The notes below the pieces were generated by a model that saw nothing but the letters and a program-made list of their open reading frames with translations, did not search any database and was not told where the DNA came from. A DNA stretch of 63,614 bases, counting the filler, from Collodictyon triciliatum (lineage: Eukaryota): the NCBI GenBank assembly GCA_043381765.1. It is 44 parts of 44 records of this genome, joined end to end, with 100 filler letters (N's around TTAATTAATTAA, not from the genome) between each part and the next. Parts side by side here need not be neighbours in the genome. Positions count along the whole stretch, not along the records: positions 7,267 to 8,619 come from JBHJMP010011332.1; positions 8,720 to 10,072 come from JBHJMP010011333.1; 42 more parts are not named here. One strand, given 5' to 3'. Positions 2,908 to 63,614 of this stretch are shown here, in pieces. The position numbers and the translations under genes are program-made. Each line of letters opens with the position of its first letter. Within the stretch, counting starts at the first letter, position 1.

Positions 2908-4138
2908 ACCGTCCCCTGGTTTCGGAACCATGCGTAGCCGGCAGTGGACTTTGCTTAACCGGAGTATGGATACGCGTTTGTGGTTTTAGAAACATACGCT
3001 CCTGCTCACTCAGACTGTCTTTGGTGTGTGAAGTTCCAAGCTTGGATTCGACTTGTGCTGTTTGCTCTTTCTCCTTGGTTCTCGGCGCGACGGGCTGGGG
3101 CAGGATAAACGGACTATCTTTGGTGGGTGCTTGTTCTTGTGTTGCCTTCGCTTTGGAGTATCCTTTCGGATAAGTAACGAAGACTGCCTTGATGCTTCCA
3201 ATGTTAACCATATTCACGTCAGTCTGAATGGGTAGTTTAAGGGGGATTTCTTTCGGGGTTTGGAGATGCGCGGCTCTTGGGTCTTGCGATGTGCGGGCTT
3301 GTCCGGTGTTGGCGATGATGGCTCGAGTGCGAGATTCTGAAGAGGAACCGAGATTTCCTCCCATTTCACCGTCGCTGTCGCTGAGTGCGCGTATCTGCTG
3401 TGAGTGTTGTGGAGTCTGTTGTTGCCTGGCCTTGGCTTCCTTGGCCCCGTTGCTGCTTGTCTGCTTGGCATGTGTATTCTTTTGCGGGGCTTTTACTTGT
3501 CGTTCGTTGTTCGCGGCTGGCGGACGCTCTTTGAGGATGCAATTTGGACACTTTTTACCCATGACCGTGAACTTTGCAGGGAGCTGGTTCTTATGACAAA
3601 GAAGCTTCACCACGGCCGTGTCTGTCAATAAGCCTTTGTCCTTTTTATCTCTACGTGGGTCGGTCTGAACGGCTTCAGCTCCTCACGAAGGAGTTGCGGC
3701 CACACATCCAGCGGTAGTTGGTAGAGCAACACCGAGGTCTCTGTTGGTTTACTTCTGCTGGAGCTGTTCATGATATCGCTCAAACTTACCTGCTTCAGCT
3801 CCAGAAGCTTTCGGGTGTTTTCTGAAGTGCGGAAGGAAATCAGGCAAAGGCCTTCGCTGTCCGGTAAGCGCAATTGGACGGACTCTTCCCAAAGTTTGTT
3901 CGCTTTCAAGAAGGCGGTGAGCGCATCTGTGAGTCTGCGTGCCTTGTTCATGTTATAAACGACTTGCTCGACCCGTGCAAAAATACAGTCCGCTCAGACA
4001 GACTTGCAGGCGGCTTCCTTGCATGAGTCTTCCTAGACTTACGTGCCACTCGGGGTTTTTCCGCACCACTGTTGGAACCAGAAGAACTGACTGCAACTTG
4101 TAAAGCCTCCAACAAAAGTGTTTTCCATCAGGCGCGGG
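2908..4138 (-). mobile_element. Non-LTR retrotransposon ORF1 (RRM-like), degenerate; family A copy 1
   Basis: Frameshifted frames give ...QVAVSSSG...TVFLHG...VLLYQLPLDVWPQLLREELKPF...DTAVVKLL followed by a disordered Q/T/P/K-rich tail. Closely similar copies lie at 36847-37610 and 55055-55890. Confidence 0.7.
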
Positions 4139-4162
4139 AGGCTTTATGAAAATTAGGCGCGG

Positions 4163-4260
4163 ATACACACATACACACATACATACATACATACATACAT
4201 ACATACATACATACATACATACATACATACATACATACATACATACATACATACATACAT
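4163..4260. repeat. (ACAT)n microsatellite
   Basis: Direct reading. Confidence 0.95.
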
Positions 4261-8595: not shown

Positions 8596-9001
8596 GTATA
8601 TTTGCAATATCATATAAATNNNNNNNNNNNNNNNNNNNNNNNNNNNNNNNNNNNNNNNNNNNNTTAATTAATTAANNNNNNNNNNNNNNNNNNNNNNNNN
8701 NNNNNNNNNNNNNNNNNNNCCAAGGAAGCACAAGCACACAAGTTCTGCACAAGTCGTCTTCTCGGAAAAATCCGCCGGCCTTTGCGGGATATTTAACCTC
8801 GTCTTGTCGAAATCCTTGCTTTTCTTTTTTATTCATTCACAAAGTACTTTCTGATCTCCTTGTGCACAACCCCACCGTCCTGACTCGAGTGATTCTGTCA
8901 TGTGTGATTATGAAGTCCACTCATAAAACAAATAAATGATGTGTATTGTATTGACACCTAGCCAGTCTACCCATATATACAGACAGCCAGAATCTGTCCA
9001 G

Positions 9002-10072
9002 ATGTCCGACTATCTCACACCTGCCCAATTGGATGCGCTTTTGGAAGAAGTCCGGAGACTCTCTGGGAAACCTGATATTGCCACTCTAAAAAGATCCACA
9101 TATCTGGATCTCAGTGGCAAGAATCTGTCATCTGTGCCGCCTGGTGTTTTTTTGTTGACTGGTCTCACAGCATTGGGTCTTGGTGGCAATAAGCTGTCAT
9201 CGCTTCCTGCACAAATATCGTGTTTGACTGGTCTCACAGAACTTTGGGTTTTTAACAATCCGGTATGTTTTTATTCATATATTATATTACTATTTATGTT
9301 TAAAAGAAAATGACTGACAACGATACACGCCAGATGGAGGAGCTTCCAGCACAGATCACAGCCCTCACAAATCTGAAAAATCTCTACATAAACGGAAGCC
9401 CACAAACCATAAAGAGAGCCCCGCGTGGCATCTCAAATCTCCCCTGCTGGAACAACACAGGATACATGGACTACCAACACATCCGCGCTCTGCAGCTCTA
9501 CGACCCCGTAAGCACACATCCAACCCCAACCCCCACATACACAACACAGGACACAACTAGCATAACTCTAGGTCGATACCGCAGCAGAAGCTAGAAGCTA
9601 ACAGACTTACCTGATACCCACAAATCCTCCACTTACACAGGTTGCAGCCAGTCCCAACATCCAGTCCGGCATCTACGCCGCCCCAACCAGCCGCCTAGCC
9701 CGCGGCAAATACGCAGATCTCCTGACAACAGACTTCGAGAAGAAAGAAAACGTCCTGGGTAAGGGCGGCTTCGGGATGGTCTTCAAGGTGCAGCTGAACG
9801 CAGGCCTCTTCGCCGTGAAGCTTGTTGGGAACGCGTCTCTGCTCACCGCCGCCGACGGTTCGGGCCCGGAGAAGGAAGGCAACATGATGCTCGAGCTGCA
9901 GCACCCAAACATCCTGACGCTCTACGACTTTGGCTTCCGCGGCAGAGACCTCCTCCTCGTGATGGAGTTTGCGGACGGCGGAGAGCTCTGCTCACTGGTC
10001 AAGAAGCAAGGGGCACTCAGCCTCGACCTGACCCTCAAGTACGGGCTGCACATCATCCAGGGCCTCGTCTAC
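9002..10072 (+). CDS. Cytosolic LRR-protein kinase (4 LRRs + TKL/IRAK-Pelle-like kinase); exons 9002-9262, 9334-9507, 9641->10072
   Basis: Two phase-0 GT-AG introns join the 23-aa LRRs (LSSLPAQISCLTGL) in frame to a kinase N-lobe: GKGGFGMV, AVK, the alphaC Glu, HPNILTL and VMEFADGG. There is no signal peptide or TM helix. Confidence 0.88.
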
Positions 10073-10172: not shown

Positions 10173-10305
10173 CTATAAAAAACTATAAAAAACTATAAAA
10201 AACTATAAAAAACTATAAAAAACTATAAAAAACTATAAAAAACTATAAAAAACTATAAAAAACTATAAAAATTATAAAAAACTGTAAAAAAAAAACTATA
10301 AAAAA
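10173..10305. repeat. (CTATAAAAAA)n 10-mer tandem repeat, probably intronic
   Basis: Direct reading. It follows a GT donor of the minus-strand BTB gene. Confidence 0.9.
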
Positions 10306-10309
10306 CTAC

Positions 10310-11399
10310 CAGTGGATGTCTGCTCTCCAGCCTCACCCAAAAATTGCTCCTGAATGGCCGCCGTGTAATGTGAATCGTAGACAACTTCAACATCACTAAG
10401 AAACCACCGACCAAGAAACTGGCGATAGTTCGCAAGTCCCTTCGCTATGTGAGCATAAGGATCGGAAGAGGGACGAGAGCAGATATTATGCAACTCTTCC
10501 ATTTCATACCGACGTGCAAGGTTCGAAAAGAGAGACACTCGAGCAGGCTCGCTTGACACTGTGATGTAGTCATTTACATTCAAATATCCCGTATAAACGA
10601 AGGAAAGAAAGTCCATCCACAACTCCGGCGTAATATCGGGGTCATCTAGCACAATTTCTGGGTGAAGAGTGGCAGGGTTATCCCTAAACATCCTCAAAAA
10701 GAACGGACTTGCCGCTGCGAGAACAAGACGATGCGCAGGAATTCGAGCTGTTCCGATGACAAAAGTCAGGTCACTAGTGTCCTGGTTCCCCAGCATGCGA
10801 TGCAGATTGGCATGGGGCGATAACAAAGCGTTTGGTGGCGTTGGACGAAACCCCGAAACCACGCGGATATCGCGAAGATACACGGGTGTGTTCCACGCGG
10901 TGACAGCAACAAAGCGGACGTTCGGAAGAGGCTCAGAATCTGTCCAGCGCATAAACTCGTGTGTGCCCGGCTCACCTTTGCCCACCGTGATGACGCCATC
11001 GTACAGATTGATCCAGTAGCGCTCGAAGCGAAGCCTGGATGAAATCACAGAGTCGGGCTGCGTGCGCTTCTGGGCACATGTCTGCTGCTGTCCTCGCTTG
11101 CGAATCGCAGACTTTGTGTTGAGCCAGCCTCCAATCACGACCTCGTAGCATGTTGCGCCTTGCGTCTGCCCGTCTTGTGAGACAAACGTCCCGTCCATTC
11201 GATCGTTCAGGCCGATGGTGATGTCGTTTTCGGCCTTGGCTTCAAAGAGGACACAGCCGCGGCCCGTCTGTCGGAGATGAAGCTCGGAGTCCTGTAGAAA
11301 CATGTAGCGGCCCCACCAGTCCACTCGCAGCGTGTTTGCGTCGGCCTCTGAGTCTCGGTCTCCAGCACTCGGCGCTGTGTTCGCCCCGGCTTTGCTCAT
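10310..11399 (-). CDS. Farnesoic-acid-O-methyltransferase-like domain + BTB/POZ protein, first exon
   Basis: FEAKAENDITIGL, YEVVIGGWLNTKSAIRK, FERYWI and ITVGKG (FAMT-like domain); SDLTFVIG..IPAHRLVLAAASPFF...FLSFVYTG (BTB); a second BTB begins at FLSDVEVV. Confidence 0.85.
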
Positions 11400-11430
11400 T
11401 CCGCTTCTGTTGGATTGGATTAAAAATCCT

Positions 11431-11524
<94 letters not shown>

Positions 11525-16966: not shown

Positions 16967-17331
16967 CGTCAAAAGCGAGGATTCTGCTCAAAGTTTACCA
17001 CACTCATCAAGAAGCTACACGACAATACCACAACTAGGGTTCTGACTGCACACAGCCCTACTGACATAATCCAGAGACAAAGCGGCGTCTACCAAGGATG
17101 CCCTCTGGCCTCACTTCTCCTTAACTTTGTCGCCGACTGCCTTGCAATCCACTTCAGAAACAACAACAAAATCCGCAACCAATTCCTCCTGCAATATGCC
17201 GACGATACAGCCTTCATCCTTCGCTCCCCTGAAGGCGCTATCCTGGCAAATAAGTGCATGCAAGAATACACACTTGCAGTCGGAGGTAAAATCAACTTCA
17301 ACAAAACAGACGGTGTCCTATTCGGCCTACA
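16967..17331 (+). mobile_element. Non-LTR retrotransposon reverse transcriptase fragment (apparently 5'-truncated)
   Basis: Stop-free frame RGFCSKFTTLIKKLH...SGVYQGCPLASLLLNFVADCL...LQYADDTAF...GGKINFNKT, containing the QGxPLS-like, YADD and G.kiN..Kt motifs. It is missing from the ORF track. Confidence 0.92.
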
Positions 17332-18711: not shown

Positions 18712-19148
18712 GTTTGTATTTTCTCCACTGGAGAAACCTTATTGTTTTGAATAAACAAAAAGCCAAAAAATAACAAAAAAANNNNNNNNNNNNNNNNNNN
18801 NNNNNNNNNNNNNNNNNNNNNNNNNTTAATTAATTAANNNNNNNNNNNNNNNNNNNNNNNNNNNNNNNNNNNNNNNNNNNNAAGGAAGCACAAGCACACA
18901 AGTTCTGCACAAGTCGTCTTCTCTGAAAAATCCGCCGGCCTTTGCGGGATATTTAACGTCGTCTTGTCGAAATCCTTGCTCCTCTTTTCTTATTCACAAA
19001 GTACTTTCTGATCTCTGTGTGCATAACCCACCGTCTGACTCGAGTAGTTCCGTCCTGTGTGATTGTGAAGTCCACTCATAAAACAAACAAATGATGTGTT
19101 TGTATTGACACCCAGCCAGTCTACAATATACAGACGGAATCTGTCCAG

Positions 19149-20231
19149 ATGTCCGACTATCTCACACCTGCCCAAGTGGATGCGCTTTTGGAAGAAGTCT
19201 GGAGACTCACTGAATTTCGAGAACCCGATATTGCCACTCTAAAAAGCTCCACATATCTGGGTCTCGGTTACAAGAATCTGTCATCTGTGCCGCCTGGTGT
19301 TTTTTTGTTGACTGGTCTGAAACGATTGGGTCTTCGTGGCAATAAGCTGTCATCGGTACCTGCACAAATATCGTGTTTGACTGGTCTCACATATCTTGAT
19401 GTTGGTGATAATAACCTGTCGTCACTACCTGCACAAATATCGTGTTTGACTGGTCTTATAAAACTTTATGTTAATGGAAATCAGCTGTCGTCACTACCTG
19501 CACAAATATCGTGTTTGACTGGTCTCATAGAACTTTCTGTTCGTGACAATCAGCTGTCGTCACTACCTGCACAAATATCGTGTTTGACTGGTCTCACATT
19601 ACTTTCTGTTCGTGGCAATCCAGTATGATTTTATTCATATATTATATTACTATTTGTGTTTAAAAGAAAATGACTGACAACGACACACGCAGATGGAGGA
19701 GCTTCCAGCACAGATCACAGCGCTCACAAATCTAAAGAAACTCTACATCGAATGGGAGGGCCGACAAACCATAAAGAGAGCCCCGCGTGGCATCTCAAAT
19801 CTCCCCTGCTGGAACAACACAGAGAAACCTTATTCTAGAATGACACTGAACTTTGCCGACGCCCTCAGAAAGCTGCAGCTCTACGACCCCGTAAGCACAC
19901 ATCCACCCCCAACCCCCACATACACAACACAGGACACAACTAACATAACTCTAGGTCGACACCACCGAAGAAGCCAGAACCTAACAGACTTACCTGACAC
20001 CCACCCACTCCACTTACACAGGTTGCAGCCAGTCCCAACATCCAGTCCGGCATCTACGCCGCCCCAACCGGCCGCCTAGCCCGCGGCAAATACGCAGATC
20101 TCCTGACAACAGACTTCGAGAAGAAAGAGAACGTCCTGGGTAAGGGCGGCTTCGGGATGGTCTTCAAGGTGCAGCTGAACGCAGGCCTCTTCGCCGTGAA
20201 GCTTGTTGGGAACGCGTCTCTGCTCACCGCC
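19149..20231 (+). CDS. Cytosolic LRR-protein kinase paralogue/allele with 7 LRRs; exons 19149-19622, 19693-19890, 20022->20231
   Basis: Upstream region, introns and kinase start are closely similar to those of 9002-10072, but there are three extra 69-nt LRR modules. Confidence 0.88.
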
Positions 20232-21375: not shown

Positions 21376-21448
21376 TGCCGAAACTCGGGATCGAACCAAG
21401 GACATCAAGATCTTCAGTCTTACGCTCTTCCAACTGAGCTATTTCGGC
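21376..21448 (-). tRNA. tRNA-Phe(GAA)
   Basis: GCCGAAATAGCTCAGTTGGAAGAGCGTAAGACTGAAGATCTTGATGTCCTTGGTTCGATCCCGAGTTTCGGCA folds into a full cloverleaf with anticodon loop CTGAAGA and T-loop TTCGATC. Confidence 0.97.
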
Positions 21449-22019: not shown

Positions 22020-23131
22020 AGGGCCGATAACCACAAAGGCTCTCCACTATGCCGTACTGCGACGAAGTCTACTTCATACAAGAACTGCAAAGGCTCTGCA
22101 GTGTGCCAGAACACGAAAACCGTAAGTCTCGTGCAACCAGAAATTATGTTTTTCCCTTCGTTTCGAGCACTTTGTTTTGACCAAGCGCACACCTAGCCGA
22201 TGTTTTTGTTATAATTCATGCGGAAGAATTTATACATGCATAGAGCATAAAAATTGAATTTTTTTTGTCAAAATAGTGCAAATTATATCCGGCTATGCGA
22301 ACATTCGAAGCCCAATTCCCTGTTTATCAAACGACGAAGTCTGCTTCACACAAGACCTGCAAAGGCTCTGCACTATGCGGAATCCGAAAAGCGTAAGTCT
22401 TATGAACCAGATATTATATTCATCTCTCACTTCGAGCACTATGTTTTGTACTTCCTACATTTAGTCCACGTTTTTGTTATAATTCGTACGGAAGAATTTT
22501 GTGGATGCATAAAGGAGAAAAATTGAATTTCTCTTGTGAAAATAGTCCAATCTTTGTCCGGCTATGGGAACATTCGAAGCCCAATTCCCTGTTTATCGAG
22601 CGACGGAGACTGCTTCACACACAATCCGCGAAGACTCTGCGTTATCCCCGAATATGACGAAGTCTGCTTCACACAAGACCCGCAAAGGCTGTGCGTTATG
22701 CCAGAATACGACGAAATCTGCCTCACGCACGAAGAACCGCAAAGGCTCTGTACTATTCCGGAGTACGAAAACCGTAAGTCCTCTGCAACCAGAAATTCTA
22801 TTTTTAGTTTCGCAACAAGCACTTTATTTTGTGCAAGCATACATTTAGTCGATGTTTTTCTTATAATTCGTATGGAAGTAGTCTATTCATGCATAAAGGA
22901 GAATAATTGAATTTCTCTTGTGAAAATAGTGCAAATTGTGTCCGGCTATGTGAACATTCGAAGCTCCATTCCCTGATTATTGAGCAACGATCTCTGCATC
23001 ACACACAAGAACCGCAAAGGCTCTGCACTATGCCCGAATACGAAAACTGTAAGTCTCGTGCAGCCAGACATTTTATTTTTCCCTTCGTTTCGAGCACTTT
23101 GTTTTGTACTTGCATACACTTAGTCGATGTT
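22020..23131. repeat. Complex tandem repeat: diverged units of about 270-385 nt containing a roughly 53-nt subrepeat
   Basis: The unit start AATTGAATTT..AAAATAGT recurs at about 22252, 22521 and 22905. The subunit GACGAAGTCTGCTTCACACAAGACC.GCAAAGGCTCTG is triplicated in 22600-22770. Confidence 0.9.
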
Positions 23132-24680: not shown

Positions 24681-26029
24681 TAACTCATCGGTCTGTGGCT
24701 CTTCAGTCTTTGGCTCTTTAATCTTAGGCTCTTCAGCCTTTGGTTCTTCAGTCTTTAACTCATCGGTCTGTGGTTCTTCGGTCTGTGGTTCTTCAGTCTT
24801 AGGTTCTTCAGTCTTAGGTTCTTCAGTCTTTGGCTCTTCAGTCTTTGGTTCTTCAGCCTTTGGTTCTTCGGTCTGTGGTTCTTCGGTATGTGGTTCTTCG
24901 GTATGTGGTTCTTCGGTATGTGGTTCTTCGGTCTTTGGCTCTTCAGTCTTTGGTTCTTCAGTCTTTGGTTCTTCAGTCTGTGGCTCTTCAGTCTTTGGTT
25001 CTTCAGTCTTTAACTCATCGGTCTGTGGTTCTTCGGTCTGTGGTTCTTCAGCCTTTGGTTCTTCAGCCTTTGGTTCTTCGGTCTTTGGTTCATCAGTCTG
25101 TGGCTCTTCAGCCTTGGGTTCTTCAGCCTGTGGTTCTTCGGTCTGTGGTTCTTCGGTCTGTGGTTCTTCGGTCTGTGGTTCTTCGGTCTGTGGTTCTTCG
25201 GTCTGTGGCTCTTCAGTCTGTGGTTCTTCGGTCTGTGGTTCTTCGGTCTGTGGTTCTTCGGTCTGTGGTTCTTCGGTATGTGGTTCTTCGGTATGTGGTT
25301 TTTCGGTCTGTGGTTCTTCGGTCTGTGGTTCTTCAGTCTGTGGTTCTTCAGTCTGTGGTTCTTCCCTTTCAAATGCATCATCATACTTTGGTTCATCGGT
25401 CTGTGGCTCTTCAATCTTACGCTCTTCAGTCTTTGGTTCTTCAGCCTGTGGTTCATCGGCCTTTGGCTCATCGGTCTGTGGCTCTTCAGTCTTTGGCTCT
25501 TCAGTCTTTGGCTCTTCAGTCTTTGGCTCTTCAGTCTGTGGTTCTTCAATCTTGGGCTCTTCAGTCTTTAGTTCTTCAGTCTGTGGCTCTTCAGCCTTTG
25601 GTTCTTCAGTCTGTAGCTCTTCAGTCTGTGGTTCTTCAGTCTGTGGTTCTTCAGTCTTTGGTTCTTCAGTCTGTGGCTCTTCAGTCTGTGGCTCTTCAGC
25701 CTTTGGTTCTTCAGTCTGTAGCTCTTCAGTCTGTGGCTCTTCAGTCTGCGGCTCTTCAGTCTGCGGCTCTTCAGTCTGCGGCTCTTCAGTCTGCGGCTCT
25801 TCAGTCTGCGGCTCTTCAATCTTGGGCTCTTCAGTCTTTAGTTCTTCAGTCTGTGGCTCTTCAGCCTTTGGTTCTTCAGTCTGTAGCTCTTCAGTCTGCG
25901 GCTCTTCAGTCTGTGGTTCTTCAATCTGTGGCTCTTCAGTCTTTGGCTCTTCAGTCTGTGGTTCTTCAATCTTGGGCTCTTCAGTCTTTAGTTCTTCAGT
26001 CTGTGGCTCTTCAGCCTTTGGTTCTTCAG
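24681..26029 (-). CDS. Acidic pentapeptide-repeat protein fragment, (T/A/I)EEP(Q/K) about 88 times (15-nt tandem repeat)
   Basis: The minus-strand frame is stop-free across the contig, including the unique insert TDEPKYDDAFEREEPQ. The plus-strand VVLRS and CGSSV ORFs are antisense shadows. Confidence 0.7.
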
Positions 26030-34716: not shown

Positions 34717-36846
34717 NNNNNNNNNNNNNNNNNNNNNNNNNNNNNNNNNNNNNNNNNNNNTTAATTAATTAANNNNNNNNNNNNNNNNNNNNNNNNNNNN
34801 NNNNNNNNNNNNNNNNAAAAAAAAGAAAAGAAAAAGAAAAGAAAAAGAAAAGAAAAAGAAAAAGAAAAGAAAAAAGAAAAGAAAAAAGAAAAGAAAAAAG
34901 AAAAGAAAAAGGAAAAAGAAAAGAAAAGAAAAGAAAAGAAAAGAAAAAGCAAAAAGAAAAGAAAAAAGAGAAAGAAAGGATAAAGAAAAGAAAAAGAAAA
35001 AGGAAAAAGAAAAAGAAAAAAGAAAAAGAAAAAGAAAAAGAAAAGAAAAGAAAAGAAAAAGAAAAGAAAAAGAAAAGAAAAGAAAAAGAAAAAGAAAAAG
35101 AAAAAGAAAAAGAAAAAGAAAAAGAAAAAGAAAAAGAAAAAGAAAAAGAAAAAGAAAAAGAAAAAGAAAAGAAAAAGCAAACAAAAGAAGGGTGTGTTTG
35201 ATCAAGCCAGAACGAACGCAGCACCAGGCGACCACTCCAACCCGATAACAGGTCTTCGATATTAATACTTACTATTTGATATTAACACACTCCATGGAAA
35301 GGTTCGAATAGTGATTCAAAAGGAAAGCAATAAATATAACCAGAGCAGACGCTTGATGAAAGCCCAGCAGCGCAACAACCACAGCCGGAGCCGTTCTCAC
35401 CCACTTTCCACTTCTCTTTCCGATCACCTCTCCTCTTTTCGGCCTGAATTCAGCATATGTGGAACATTGTGCAATTTGTTTGGCCGGGTTGGAATTCACA
35501 CGGGACAACGCACCAAAACACATCCCCAATTTATCCAAACACACAGCAAAACTCGGCTGCATCGCACTGCTGCGGAAATCCTATCGCTGAAGCAGGCGTT
35601 CGGCTGAATCGATACTACGAGAGGCGGCCGGTGGCTTGAAATAGGTCGGCGTGTGGGCCAACTCTGCTTGCTCCGGGTGGTTGCTGAGGCGCAGTGTGGT
35701 GTGATGTGATGTGATGCCTGATGGCTGTCTCAATTGCAGATACCGCCGGCATCCCATCATGCGCCTCATAGAACTAATTCACCAAATATCACAACAATGC
35801 TAATCTACTTCACAGCGTGAAAAGATATAAATTAAGAGGAAAAAACGAAAAAAAATGGAAGTAGAGCCTTATCATGCATGCAACAGTATGGTTCCGCATG
35901 GGTGATATGCATATGTCTTTCATGCAAAGTTCAACAAAAGTAATCTACCTGGATATCCCAGGGCTTATAACCACAGAAGTTGTGAATATAATGAGTTCAG
36001 AGTTCCGTTTATACAATATTTTTTAATTTGTTTATTTGATAATGCACCAAATCAATGGTGGACACTGTGATTACTCTTTGGCAGATGAATTCGATTCGAT
36101 TAATAATAAATGTATTAATTTTTTATTGTGTTCAGAGGAGGAAAAATTCAACTAGAATGATATTNNNNNNNNNNNNNNNNNNNNNNNNNNNNNNNNNNNN
36201 NNNNNNNNTTAATTAATTAANNNNNNNNNNNNNNNNNNNNNNNNNNNNNNNNNNNNNNNNNNNNCGGCGTTGGGTGCGGCTTTGCCTGTGAGCGTGCCTG
36301 CCGAGTTGGAGGGCACGTTTGGGTCTTTGTCCGCAGCGGAAGGGGAGCCTCTTGTGGAGTCTTTGGGGTTGGCGGGGGTTTTGCCATGGTTGGTGTGTGC
36401 GCTGACTCTGGAATCGGTGCGAGCTGTGGTGTGGCTTCACCTTTGTTGTGGGGCAAAGCGCTCGGCCGTCTCCCTGCGGGGGTACGCAAGGCCCAAGCCG
36501 CTCGACAGGTCGGATGCCAGCAGCACAACGCCCTCCGTGGCGCACTCGCGGGTGCGGTGGACTTCGCACAGCTGCGCCAACAGGCGCAGGCGTGTGGCGT
36601 GTGTCAGTGTCTCAGTGTACTCGCCCACAAGGCACACCACGCAGCCGGCCGGGTAGAGTCCCTTCTCCTGCAGTCCCGCTGCTCGCTCCACCAGTCGCGT
36701 CCGGTAATGCTCGTATACCACATTCTCGTCGTCAAGTTGAGGCTTGGTTGCCATCCGTGTGGTTTTTGTGCAAAACCAAAGGGCTAATCGGTTAGAGCAG
36801 CTTCAGATTCGAATCATAGGCACACATTAAAGACACTTTCACCCTG

Positions 36847-37610
36847 CCCGCGCCTGATTGAAAACACAAGACGCGACCCGTCGAAGGCTTCGCAAGTTGC
36901 AGCCAGTTCTTCTGGTTCCAACGCTGGTGCGGAAAACCCCGAGTTGCACGTAAGTCTAGGAAGACGTGTGCAAGGAAGCCGCCTGCAAGTTTGTCTGAGC
37001 GGATAGTATTTTTGCACGGGGTCGAGCAAGTCGTTTACAACAAGAACAAGGCCCGCAGGCTCACAGATGCACTCGCCTCCTTCTTGAAAGGAACAAACTT
37101 TGGGAAGAGTCCATCCAATTGCGCTTACCGGACAGCGAAGGCCTTTGCCTGATTGCCTTCCGCCCTGCAGAGAACGCCCGAAAGCTTCTGGAGCCGAAGC
37201 AGGTAAGTTTGAGCGATATTACGATCAGCTTCAGCAGAAGTAGACCAACAGAGACCTCGGCGATGCTCTACCAACTACCGCTGAACGTGTGGCCGCAACT
37301 TATTCATGAGGAGCCGAAGCCGTTCAGACCGACCCACGTGGAGATCAAAAAGGGACAAAGGCTTCTTCACAGACACGGCCGTGGTGAAGCTTGTTTATCA
37401 TAAGAACCAGCTCCCTGAAAAGTTTACGGTCATGGGCAAAAAGTGTCCAAAGCGCGTCCTCAAAGAGCGTCCGCCAGCCGCGAACAACGAACGACAAGCA
37501 AAAACCCGCAAAAGAATACACCCGCCAAGCAGACAAGCAGCAACGGGGTCAAGGAAGCCAAGGCCAGGCAACAACTGAGCCCGCAAGACTCACAGCAGAT
37601 ACGCGCATAC
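36847..37610 (+). mobile_element. Non-LTR ORF1 family A copy 2 (5' part, frameshifted)
   Basis: Aligns with the reverse complement of 3390-4138. Confidence 0.75.
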
Positions 37611-44839: not shown

Positions 44840-45790
44840 TTTTNNNNNNNNNNNNNNNNNNNNNNNNNNNNNNNNNNNNNNNNNNNNTTAATTAATTAAN
44901 NNNNNNNNNNNNNNNNNNNNNNNNNNNNNNNNNNNNNNNNNNNTTTTTCGCGCGCGTGATGCGCGAAGCAGCTTGAAGCAGCAGCCAGCAACCAACCAAG
45001 CAAGCAGCAGTGTTTTTTGTCTCGACTGCCTTCCTCAAGTCATCTTTCAAGCTTCACTCACACATGTGCGAGCACACACGAGACTCGAACAGCCTTCAAC
45101 TTGCTTTCGGCTGAATAATGCAGTGTTTTTACTATGACACGCACGAAGCTTCTCAAGTAAGTCTTCTCTCCACTTTGCCACTTCATTATGTTTTTTTATT
45201 TTTCTGTCTTCAGAATTCTCTTTTTTATTTTGTTACAAAACATAGAACGCACGAAGCTTTCTCACAAGCCATTTATCCCACTTTGTCACTTTTCTTTAAA
45301 ATCTTGGCAAAAATTCCGCTTCATTCTGCCACCCATTTGCGAAGCTTCTTGTAAGTCTTACGTTAACAAATCATAATTTGTCTTGTCTTATGTTTTTTCG
45401 TTTGATTTTGTCAAAGTTTGCTTAACTTTTTTATTTTCCAGTTATTGTGTTTTCATGTTATTTTCAATGAAAGTCTTCCAAATCAACCTTTTTTTCTTGC
45501 CAGCCGTCCAGTTTTCGCCGCTATCTCCGCTAACCTTACTATCGACGCTCGAAACCCCATTGCACCCCCGAAGCTCTACTATTTATTTCGCAGTTGATTC
45601 GTCCCTCTTCTCTTACTTGCTTTTCTTCCTGCCGCAACCAGTGATCTGCAACCCGTCACCTTCTCCCAATCCCAAGCAATACGACACCAAACAAATAAAC
45701 ACTGCGCAACCTGCCCACACAAAACTCGACTCATTTGTCTCCGGTTACCTCAGAGAGCGTCACAACCACTTTCCGTCCCCCTCCACCGCC

Positions 45791-46237
45791 ATGGCTGATC
45801 GCGCCGCCCGTCTCGAAGAGCTGCGAGAAATCGTCGGTGGCAGCATCGCGGAGCTCGAAAAACGCACAGAGCTGAGTCTCCATATTAAAAATCTGACTTC
45901 TGTGCCGCCCGGTGTCTGGGATCTGCCAGGCTTGGTGGACTTGTGGCTCTTTGACAATCAGCTTTCGTCGCTGCCGCCGGAAATATCGCAGTTGACGGGA
46001 CTCGCGGAGCTTTATGTTCACAACAACAAGCTTTCGTCGCTGCCGCCGGAAATATTGCAGTTGACGGGACTCGAAGTGCTTAATGTTAGTGTAAACCAGC
46101 TTTCGTCGCTGCCGCCGGAAATATCGCAGTTGACGGGACTCGAACTGCTTGATGTTCAAAACAACCGGCTTTCGTCGCTGCCGCCGGAAATATCGCAGTT
46201 GACGGGACTCACGTGGCTTTATGTTTCCCTGAACCCT
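45791..46237 (+). CDS. LRR protein first exon, distant paralogue of the 9002/19149 family
   Basis: MADRAARLEELRE...KNLTSVPPGVWDL followed by 23-aa LSSLPPEISQLTGL modules. The exon ends NP|GTAAGT at the same position and phase as in the LRR-kinases. Confidence 0.85.
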
Positions 46238-46648
46238 GTAAGTGTTTTGTTGTTTTTGTTTTATTTTTATGAAATAAAAGTGACTANNNNNNNNNNNNNN
46301 NNNNNNNNNNNNNNNNNNNNNNNNNNNNNNTTAATTAATTAANNNNNNNNNNNNNNNNNNNNNNNNNNNNNNNNNNNNNNNNNNNNTCGTTTTATTTTAT
46401 CCATCTTGCTTTGGTAGGCAGACGTTGTTTGTTATATAGTGTTGCGTTTAACTCCTTTATTTATTTAATTATTTTTCCTTTCATTTTTGTGCATGTTGAG
46501 AGGTTTTGGTCGGTGTATTATTCTTTTTCTTTTCAGAACAGATTCATGCCCGTTTGTGGTGTCAAGTACTTTTGTCGAAAACACAACAGAGTTCTTTTCG
46601 TAACAAAAGTACACGAGGTCGCGGACGACATTATGCATGGCCAGTCAC

Positions 46649-62271: not shown

Positions 62272-63614
62272 CGAGCTTGACATCTCCAACAACCAGGTTT
62301 ATAACGACTTTAATATGAATGGAACACCTGTAATTGTTAATCCATTTTATTAGTAACATGATTGCAATTAAACCATCTTAAATAAATAAATAGATATCCA
62401 CACTACCAGCAAATATATCGAACTTGACGAATCTCACAAATATCAGTATCAGCAACAACAAGGTACGAATACTTGAGTTAACAAGAATATATAAACATAC
62501 ATCCCAGCCTATCATAAATGAGAATGTTTTGACAAATACTTGCACACCAAAGTTCGACGAATTGCCTGCAGCCATCTGCACATTGACACTCATCGCATCA
62601 CTCGATATATCCACCAACCAGGTAACTAAACCCCCTTTTTTTAACGAGACATTCCTATATTCATTAATGCAATTTTATCAGTAACATGATTGAAATTAAA
62701 CCCTCTTTATTAATTAATTAATAAATAAATAAATAGATATCCACACTGCCAGCAAACATATCGAACTTGACGAATCTCGCAAATATCAGCATCAGCAACA
62801 ACAAGGTACGAATACTTGAGTTAACAAGAATATATAAACATACATCCCAGCCTATCATAAATGAAATTTTTCTGACAAATACTTACACGCCAAAGTTCGA
62901 CGAATTGCCTGCAGCCATCTGCACATTGACACTCATCGCATCACTCAATATATCCACCAACCAGGTGACTAAATCATTTTCTTCTCCATTTAAAAAAAAA
63001 AAAGACATTCCCATACTTCATTAAAAAATTTTATCAGTAACATGATTGAAATTAAACCCTCTTTAATCAAAATAATAAATAAATAAATGTATAGATATCC
63101 ACACTGCCAGCAAACATATCGAACTTGACGAATCTCACAAATCTCAGCATCAGCAACAACAAGGTACGAATACTTTGTGCTCGATTATAGCCGAATAATT
63201 TAAGAGTTTGAATCATGCACAAAGCGGAAGGCCTTTGATTTGCTTGTGGATTCATGCACCAGCCGTCGATATTAAGGGAAACCCCCTCCCTTCAATTAAC
63301 AGATATCCGCATTGCCTGATTTGCGAGCATTGACAAAGCTCAAGAAGTTGGACACGAAGCAAAATGCTTTTCCATCGCACATCCAACAAATTTTAGACTC
63401 AATCAATCTCGCAAATAGCGATGGAATAAGTCTATATGGAAGAAATATCATAGATTTACCAAATGAACTGTTCATGCTGCCCATCAAACCCAACGAGCTT
63501 GACATCTCCAACAACCAGGTTTATAACGACTTTAATATGAATGGAACACCTGTAATTGTTAATCCATTTTATTAGTAACATGATTGCAATTAAACCATCT
63601 TAAATAAATAAATA
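62272..63614 (+). CDS. LRR protein built from single-LRR exons (62394-62462, 62553-62621, 62737-62805, 62896-62964, 63095-63163) plus a 216-nt exon (63303-63518)
   Basis: Five exons of exactly 69 nt, bounded by AG/GT and all phase 0, alternate ISTLPANISNLTNLTNISISNNK and FDELPAAICTLTLIASLDISTNQ. The introns are duplicated too. Confidence 0.85.

Follow-up and report, generated by a model that had tools for sequence, protein, structure and literature searches.

The stretch of Collodictyon triciliatum DNA analysed here (the window; 63,614 bases) carries parts of three related genes, designated A, B and C, which may be read as members of a germline multigene family of intracellular leucine-rich repeat (LRR) kinases that evolves by diversifying selection together with repeat homogenisation and serves in recognition; a probability of about 0.5 is given to this reading as a whole. 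Taken separately, the existence of the family and its diversifying mode of evolution are highly probable, and a recognition-receptor function of the proteins is somewhat favoured. The proteins are predicted to be cytosolic and to consist of an N-terminal helix, a block of 23-residue LRRs, a linker of approximately 60–100 residues and a Ser/Thr kinase. The window is made up of 44 contigs of 1343–1354 bp each, ordered by size and with N44-TTAATTAATTAA-N44 spacers between them, and represents several loci rather than one. Contig A spans positions 8720–10072, contig B 18882–20231 and the gene C contig 44944–46286; genes A and B are two fragments of a very fragmented short-read assembly.

Hypervariable patches within homogeneous LRR frameworks

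The 69-nt LRR module consists of a 27-nt hypervariable patch, encoding x-x-L-x-[LV]-x-x-N-x, followed by a 42-nt framework that encodes LSSLPAQISCLTGL or a close variant; the framework residues are L-S-S-[LV]-P-A-Q-I-S-C-L-T-G-L in A and B, and L-S-S-L-P-P-E-I-S-Q-L-T-G-L in C. In the LRR solenoid, the xxLxLxxNx segment forms the β-strand on the concave face and the x residues point to the ligand. Within one gene the frameworks are near-identical in DNA, and the patches differ at almost every x codon. Among modules B3–B5 the mean number of differences is 8.3 per 27 nt in the patch and 0.67 per 42 nt in the framework; the proportion of nonsynonymous differences (pN) is 0.52 at x codons and 0 in the framework, and that of synonymous differences (pS) is 0.05 in the framework and 0 at the fixed patch codons. 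Modules C2–C5 differ on average at 12.7 patch and 0.5 framework nucleotides, with a framework pS of 0 (73.5 sites) and a pS of 0.67 at fixed patch codons. Across these within-gene comparisons, framework pN is 0–0.017 and pS 0–0.05, against an x-codon pN of 0.50–0.57; the framework value is 0.16 once A2 and B2 are pooled with B3–B5 and C2–C5. A 29-nt framework string is present in five exact copies, one in A and four in B, where 0 are expected. Numerous silent positions separate the B frameworks from those of C, and this homogeneity is therefore confined to the gene or subfamily.

The same contrast is seen between genes. Where LRRs of A and B match in position, 17 of 54 nt in x codons are different (31%), and 10 of the 11 changed x codons alter the residue; the figures are 3 of 111 nt (2.7%) for the remaining LRR codons and 39 of 468 nt (8.3%) for non-coding DNA (upstream region plus both introns). 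Fisher tests give p = 7.5e-6 for x codons versus non-coding DNA and p = 0.04 for the deficit in the other LRR codons. In contigs from public sequencing runs that align to gene B, the patches, which make up 162 nt, hold 20 of the 24 listed variant positions in LRR1–6, and the frameworks, at 210 nt, hold 4 (p = 6e-5), these positions being drawn from the 40 listed of 159 variant rows. An AlphaFold2 single-sequence model of B exon 1 is too low in confidence for use (mean predicted local distance difference test score 53.8); its strands, at residues 82–86, 105–109, 128–132 and 151–155, lie on patch codons 2–6 of LRR3–6, as the LRR canon predicts.

Uniform divergence after duplication was considered and is ruled out by 27-nt islands that are 30–47% different beside 42-nt blocks identical even at silent sites. 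The contrast of patch and framework therefore calls for two processes, homogenisation of the frameworks and x-residue diversity that is either kept or accelerated. The excess of x-codon differences over neutral sites, seen among B3–B5 and between A and B, argues for positive selection, and variation of x codons above non-coding divergence is the signature expected of a diversifying binding surface. In gene C, the silent differences inside the patches argue that the patches are older than the frameworks surrounding them, and hence point to concerted evolution or patch exchange.

A less elaborate account is that these are ordinary intracellular signalling kinases in which the LRRs form a docking scaffold, and that recent duplication, relaxed constraint and sub-functionalisation have produced the differences with no non-self recognition involved. 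It finds some footing in the occurrence of LRR-kinases lacking a transmembrane (TM) helix and any known immune role in other protists, such as the Diphylleia rotans protein P0036 described below, in a kinase N-lobe that is just generically like S6K, DAPK and ULK, and in the 15 LRR-kinases of Ectocarpus, which show no clustering or shuffling in the sections of the source drawn on here (PMC3341825). Relaxed constraint, however, cannot lift x codons (31%) over non-coding DNA (8.3%) with other LRR codons at 2.7%, and it cannot preserve framework identity at silent positions; this account is unlikely, though of the alternatives weighed here it is the one with the strongest claim.

Mosaic identity of genes A and B

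A and B are of one gene type, with three exons and two GT..AG introns of phase 0 at identical positions, and encode in the same order a short N-terminal helix, 23-residue LRRs, a linker and the N-lobe of a Ser/Thr kinase. Contig A begins CCAAGGAAGC and contig B begins AAGGAAGC, which is the same sequence shifted by 2 nt. There are 4 LRRs in A and 7 in B; the last-but-one LRR of each is split by intron 1, and the final one is degenerate. The gap in exon 1 size, 474−261 = 213 nt, equals 3×69+6, and Tandem Repeats Finder (TRF) reports for B a period of 69 nt with 4.2 copies and 0 indels.

Along the gene, identity between A and B is a mosaic. The upstream regions agree at 242 of 267 aligned nt (90.6%), the N-terminal part of exon 1 at 92.7% and LRR1 at 92.8%; in LRR2 the patch is 85% identical and the framework is identical at 41 of 42 nt, and the last patch is identical at just 18 of 27 nt. 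Intron 1 then differs by 3 mismatches and 1 indel, the LRR part of exon 2 is 90% identical, intron 2 is identical at 120 of 131 positions (91.6%), and the shared kinase exon at 208 of 210 nt. The sequence-only reading of this DNA had described the two contigs as starting alike, with closely similar upstream DNA, common intron positions and near-identical intron 1 and kinase DNA; each of these statements holds, as does its count of 4 against 7 LRRs with the exon 1 gap given above, module counts here being read from short-read contigs. A separate observation concerns the linker after the last LRR, which is a second hypervariable stretch between A and B: its tail (9445–9507 versus 19804–19890) is identical at 42 of 63 aligned nt and carries a 21-nt indel, with flanks at least 90% identical.

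This colinearity raises the question of whether the two contigs represent one locus, as divergent alleles or strain variants, or are partly chimeric short-read paths through a repeat, so that the difference between 4 and 7 LRRs would be no real property of two genes. Outside the patches the contigs are 90–99% identical and colinear, both start at the same base, as they would at a branch of the assembly graph, the 29-nt framework string is exact in five places, and the full stretch is spanned by none of the aligned run contigs; Illumina assemblies are also known to fail on the conserved repeats of het-d and het-e, as far as the portion of the source used here reports (PMC11761791). A DNA contig of 508 nt from run X3 reaches 412 nt farther upstream than the gene B contig, whose start is therefore an assembly break. 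Set against a single locus are the non-coding divergence of 8.3%, which is high for alleles, the clearly paralogous gene C, and the presence of many variants per position within single runs. Moreover, the LRR2 patch and the last patch of A are found nowhere in B, and because these two patches are unique A is not a collapsed form of B, in agreement with what had been proposed from the sequence alone. A single locus or chimera is thus fairly improbable, somewhat more so than the docking scaffold.

Gene C, further family members and splicing

Gene C has an ATG at 45791 and an N-terminal helix like that of A and B, and its LRRs match Pfam LRR_8 at 66.6 bits. GTAAGT at 46238 follows directly on its last patch, exactly where intron 1 interrupts the module in A and B; the contig is without a kinase part. 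With gene C, family members account for 3 of the 44 contigs of the window. Upstream of it, at 45100–45370, three similar short segments, read by eye, end in GTAAGTCT-like 5′ splice-site sequences and may be alternative non-coding leader exons.

Public runs were searched by sampled words of B: 0 contain half or more of them, and 20, mostly labelled freshwater, contain 5–18%, a share which in the runs that were not aligned is no evidence for habitat. Contigs of four runs, which may be of another organism than genes A, B and C, were aligned to the gene B contig at a likeness of at least 85%. In the identity classes 99% and above, 95–99%, 90–95% and below 90%, the 166 aligned contigs of X1 (coded organism) are distributed as 36, 41, 59 and 30, the 194 of X2 (coded organism) as 41, 43, 76 and 34, the 92 of X5 (a freshwater metatranscriptome) as 24, 30, 26 and 12, and the 10 of X3 (a freshwater DNA metagenome) as 0, 1, 6 and 3. 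Those listed are mostly 80–175 nt long. If this length is typical, then by rough inference X1 and X2 each cover the 1350 nt about 10-fold or more with distinct sequences, a figure that is no copy number.

Splicing is evident from the joints in these contigs. A joint from 19890 to 20022, skipping 131 nt bounded by GT..AG, is present in two contigs of X1 and one of X5, and intron 2 is therefore spliced out. Further, 12 listed inserted strings from X1, X2 and X5 run from an LRR framework into a patch unlike B's, and 11 of the 12 continue straight into exon 2 at 19692; they hold at least 10 distinct last-LRR patches, mostly ending AATCC or AACCC. Such framework–patch–exon 2 contigs are spliced, intron-1-less forms of further family members. 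The depth of X5 is zero over 18882–19106, 19422–19466, 19602–19691 and 19917–20006, gaps which are no evidence in themselves, and the joints alone were used. The family is multi-copy, transcribed and spliced as modelled. The expectation that more than two copies exist is borne out by gene C in the window and by the many last-LRR patches in X1, X2 and X5, runs which may be of other species. A spliced leader was also considered for a loose end before 19126 that is common to X1, X2 and X5; it resembles the upstream region of A and is read as paralogue variation.

Domain architecture and relatives

With Pfam cut-offs of 27 bits for LRR_8 (PF13855) and 31.7 bits for Pkinase, LRR_8 is matched by A at 34.1 bits and by B at 70.3 bits, and Pkinase (PF00069) by A at 53.3 bits over profile positions 3–113 of 263. 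A kinase N-lobe is characterized by its Gly-rich loop, β3 Lys and αC Glu, and in the translation of A exon 3 the GKGGFG loop, the FAVK lysine, the αC Glu (nine residues before HPNIL) and HPNIL are intact. Both contigs end before kinase subdomain VIb, the catalytic loop, and the remaining kinase part is on no other contig of the 44-contig window. Against the PDB, the N-lobe yields generic matches to S6K, DAPK and ULK (E about 1e-10) and no specific solved family.

Neither a signal peptide nor a TM helix is found in the 289 residues of A or the 294 of B that are present, the C-terminal part lying off both contigs; the highest 19-residue Kyte-Doolittle means are 1.49 and 1.39, and the N-termini are hydrophilic. 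The linker in view (58–66 plus about 35 residues) is likewise non-hydrophobic. This agrees with the earlier statement that signal peptide and TM helix are lacking, for the parts present, and the design of a constant kinase joined to variable LRRs that it described is real. No Pfam match to LRRNT_2 is found in the exons of A and B; Roc and COR domains have no match on any of these exons, and the linker is too short for both; neither NB-ARC nor NACHT occurs in the 289 and 294 residues counted from the start codon, with the C-terminus beyond the contigs.

In their overall plan the proteins recall plant receptor-like kinases (RLKs), which join an LRR sensor to a kinase, and plant nucleotide-binding LRR receptors (NLRs), which are intracellular LRR sensors with a hypervariable concave face; unlike these, A and B are without signal peptide, TM helix, LRRNT_2 or NB-ARC in the parts present. 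In the variable lymphocyte receptors (VLRs) of lampreys, LRR module number varies and a conserved framework carries variable concave-face residues, and the germline genes are incomplete, being assembled somatically from flanking cassettes. The genomic copies of A and B differ in carrying open reading frames (ORFs) that are uninterrupted from the ATG through the LRRs into the kinase, with nothing of the incomplete germline gene of the VLR type. In A, B and C the LRRs follow one another within exon 1, an intron splitting the last canonical LRR alone, so an arrangement of one exon per LRR is absent. The family lacks the defining features of plant LRR-RLKs, ROCO/LRRK proteins, NLRs and VLRs; by analogy, its proteins can still be imagined to work like those systems, with a variable repeat sensor and a constant signalling module.

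When the kinase exon was used as query in an exhaustive HMMER search of 1.84 billion representatives, 0 matches reached E≤1e-30 and 57 reached E≤1e-10. Among the best single-kinase matches are two EukProt transcripts of Diphylleia rotans, P0036 (EP00002 P040748) and P0028 (P031582), which resemble A and B in having a short N-terminus, LRRs from about residue 20, a long linker, a Ser/Thr kinase and no TM helix. P0036 is a 655-residue protein with LRRs at 25–119 and a kinase at 324–569 in which HRD and DFG are present; its residue 3 aligns to residue 14 of B, its LRRs are 36–39% identical, and against A exon 3, with the pre-kinase segment included, identity is 35%. Its highest 19-residue Kyte-Doolittle mean of 1.18 indicates that it has no TM helix. 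At about 35% identity the Diphylleia LRR-kinases are the nearest relatives, and only distant ones; the TM-less N-terminus–LRR–kinase architecture occurs elsewhere, and judging by sequence the A/B/C family is a distant, undescribed branch. Other LRR-kinases found via P0036 (P0188, P0190, P0194 and P0202) have a strong TM segment and are receptor-kinase-like. A separate homologous-protein search with the kinase exon returned bacterial-type kinases alone, at 29–39% identity, and JGI metagenome contigs yielded 7 loci at 27–47% and 0 family members. Among viral contigs there were 11 candidate stretches and 0 relatives; a viral origin was dropped in view of this and of the spliceosomal introns. In the open-access literature searched, supplementary tables excluded, no TM-less LRR-kinase family with highly conserved repeats is reported in a protist.

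Comparison with diversified repeat sensors

Brown algae offer a parallel in a eukaryote that is neither plant nor animal. According to the parts of Zambounis et al. 2012 (PMC3341825) drawn on here, Ectocarpus has 37 LRR-ROCO GTPases and 15 LRR-kinases in which every LRR occupies an exon of 72 nt; diversifying selection acts on these repeats, and exon shuffling is described for the ROCOs and reported absent in the 15 LRR-kinases. Shared with A, B and C are an LRR sensor facing the cytoplasm and fused to a signalling enzyme, a variable number of LRRs and diversifying selection upon them, the algal proteins having been proposed as immune receptors (PMC3341825). The difference lies in the units, which in A, B and C are of 69 nt and lie inside one exon, and in the absence of Roc and COR. 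In Tetrahymena, the sections consulted of Xiong et al. 2019 (PMC6564038) describe LRR genes in the thousands, composed of exons of 90 bp and introns of phase 2, some of the genes being kinase-fused; this is likewise a freshwater protist with a massive lineage-specific LRR expansion by unequal crossing-over and some LRR arrays joined to a kinase (PMC6564038), but its units are of 30 residues, whereas A and B have 69-nt units, phase-0 introns and frames that are open in the standard code.

The closest match in mode of evolution is provided by the HET-D/HET-E/HNWD proteins of Podospora anserina. As far as the consulted text of PMC1805685 goes, the WD40 repeats of het-d and het-e evolve in concert and are exchanged among members of the family, and diversifying selection acts on four surface residues in each repeat; the highly conserved repeat domains cannot be reconstructed from Illumina assemblies, as stated in the available part of PMC11761791. 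The likeness extends to near-identical repeats, hypervariable surface residues, varying repeat number and unreliable short-read assembly (PMC1805685, PMC11761791), and near-identical repeats with few hypervariable surface positions per repeat, as in the HNWD proteins, are found in A, B and C, with the caveat of short-read assembly. These are WD40 rather than LRR proteins, they carry NACHT and HET rather than a kinase, and they are fungal; homology is not claimed.

The fungal parallel brings with it the idea that the A/B/C proteins recognize their own species, in mating, kin recognition or allorecognition, rather than pathogens. The match to the HNWD signature of conserved repeats, concerted evolution and few hypervariable residues, as set out in the portions used of PMC1805685 and PMC11761791, speaks for it; against it, the proteins contain no cell-death or NACHT module, and their cytosolic location would require cell fusion or ligand uptake. 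Recognition of this kind is accordingly rated as a poor prospect, below both alternatives discussed above.

Proposed mechanism and points that weigh against it

In the mechanism proposed for the LRR-kinase family, unequal crossing-over or gene conversion in the germline would homogenise the frameworks and would also have changed the number of repeats, and the identical frameworks would serve as the homology for module gain, loss and exchange. Positive selection would act on the x residues. The concave LRR face may bind ligands that vary, whether of a pathogen, a symbiont, prey or a non-self cell, and ligand binding would activate the kinase through relief of autoinhibition or through clustering. 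An immune-like role combined with module shuffling, as first put forward from the sequence, is plausible but only partly supported.

Several points weigh against recognition receptors diversified in this way. Hypervariable LRRs are also found in proteins that have nothing to do with immunity. The genomic copies in view number only three, and the many run variants may in part belong to other species or strains, as no run holds half or more of B's sampled words. The counts on which selection is argued derive from few, non-independent module pairs, and the synonymous differences at fixed patch codons of gene C (pS 0.67) indicate framework homogenisation or patch exchange and not positive selection alone. 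The catalytic loop, DFG and C-terminus lie beyond the contigs, placing kinase activity and a C-terminal membrane anchor out of view, and the kinase of C is unseen. Module number and order rest on short-read contigs in which 29–42 identical nt are open to mis-joining, and merging of minor framework variants by the assembler can exaggerate framework identity (cf. the part of PMC11761791 drawn on here).

A stronger version of the shuffling idea takes the identical 42-nt frameworks as the substrate of a dedicated module exchange, in which patches would be copied between paralogues, and perhaps also from intron-flanked LRR-exon arrays like that at 62272–63614; it is regarded as a very long shot. 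The contig at 62272–63614 is itself AT-rich (34.5% GC content) and carries an array of 69-nt phase-0 LRR exons, five of which were found, in units of 343–358 nt. Its first 121 nt equal its last 121 nt, which makes it a tandem array repeating every 1222 nt. Its exon boundary coincides in register with intron 1 of A, B and C, and the exons start like their exon 2 (tblastn 45–58%, 19–20 residues). The array, if it comes from the same organism, could be a reservoir of LRR cassettes.

Feature coordinates and other contents of the window

Table 1. Positions of the modelled parts of genes A, B and C and of two exons of the separate LRR-exon array.
Feature	Position	Strand	Description
Gene A upstream region and 5′ leader	8720..9001	+	242/267 aligned nt identical to B
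Gene A exon 1	9002..9262	+	87-residue ORF from ATG, ends ..NNP before GTATGT
Gene A exon 1 parts	LRR1 9098-9166; LRR2 9167-9235; LRR3 patch 9236-9262	+	N-terminal helix precedes the LRRs; from module listing
Gene A intron 1	9263..9333	+	71 nt, GT..AG, phase 0, 25% GC
Gene A exon 2	9334..9507	+	58 residues; LRR3 framework 9334-9375, degenerate LRR4 9376-9444, variable linker 9445-9507
Gene A intron 2	9508..9640	+	133 nt, GT..AG, phase 0
Gene A exon 3	9641..10072	+	144 residues, open at contig end; pre-kinase segment and kinase N-lobe
Gene B upstream region and 5′ leader	18882..19148	+	homology to A upstream
Gene B exon 1	19149..19622	+	158-residue ORF; N-terminal helix, LRR1-5 19251-19595 (69 nt each), LRR6 patch 19596-19622
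Gene B intron 1	19623..19692	+	70 nt, GT..AG, phase 0
Gene B exon 2	19693..19890	+	66 residues; LRR6 framework, degenerate LRR7, linker
Gene B intron 2	19891..20021	+	131 nt, GT..AG, phase 0
Gene B exon 3	20022..20231	+	70 residues, kinase start, open at contig end
Gene C exon 1	45791..46237	+	tblastn 55-58% protein identity to B exon 1
Gene C exon 1 parts	five 69-nt LRRs 45866-46210; last patch 46211-46237	+	last patch ends ..LNP; TRF period 69, 3.9 copies
LRR exon of array	62394-62462		encodes ISTLPANISNLTNLTNISISNNK; between ..atag and gtacga
LRR exon of array	62553-62621		encodes FDELPAAICTLTLIASLDISTNQ; between ..aaag and gtaact

Contig GC ranges from 31% to 57% across the window, and within gene A it is 25% for intron 1 and reaches 61% for the kinase exon; from this spread, the assembly may be mixed or of very heterogeneous composition. 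Microsatellites or homopolymers stand at the ends of many contigs.

The remaining contigs hold other features. The contigs at 2908–4260, 36265–37610 and 55055–56398 share 91–95% identical DNA over 230–726 nt and represent a repeated element or gene family; the first and last of them have open frames of 258 and 262 residues with no Pfam match. The contig at 49279–50622 is open throughout (448 residues) and encodes cysteine-rich Ephrin_rec_like, NCD3G and TNFR-like repeats (E 1e-72) with a tandem period of 279 nt, and a 408-residue open frame on the minus strand at 10299–11522 combines Methyltransf_FA with BTB, an architecture linked mainly to plant proteins (Atlas); the kinase sequence falls there in generic kinase clusters alone. 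The whole contig at 24681–26029 is a 15-nt unit repeated about 89 times and open in several frames, and a 269-nt tandem repeat of 2.1 copies lies at 22060–22621. A tRNA-Phe (GAA) at 21376–21448 on the minus strand is the sole Rfam match in the window; a reverse-transcriptase fragment is found at 16967–17329 on the plus strand, and further Pfam matches on other contigs are to GATA, P5-ATPase, HECT and MatE. None of these domains is taxonomically diagnostic, and the P5-ATPase fragment had 0 matches in a word-index search.

Significance of the family

Innate immunity in plants, animals and fungi is built on fast-diversifying intracellular repeat sensors, and the design of a conserved scaffold with hypervariable sites has so far been best documented in fungal WD40 sensors. 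In the A/B/C family, a hypervariable LRR face is coupled directly to a kinase, with no membrane anchor in the parts present. Genes of this kind break up short-read assemblies and are probably under-counted in protist genomes. Should, as a very long shot, dedicated module exchange exist and also be somatic, single cells or clones of a protist would have individual repertoires of cytosolic LRR-kinases, a VLR-like anticipatory system outside animals. If the recognition function is true, the family would represent a compact and tractable sensor-kinase design, the activity of a kinase being easily read out, and another independent origin of a diversified recognition repertoire.

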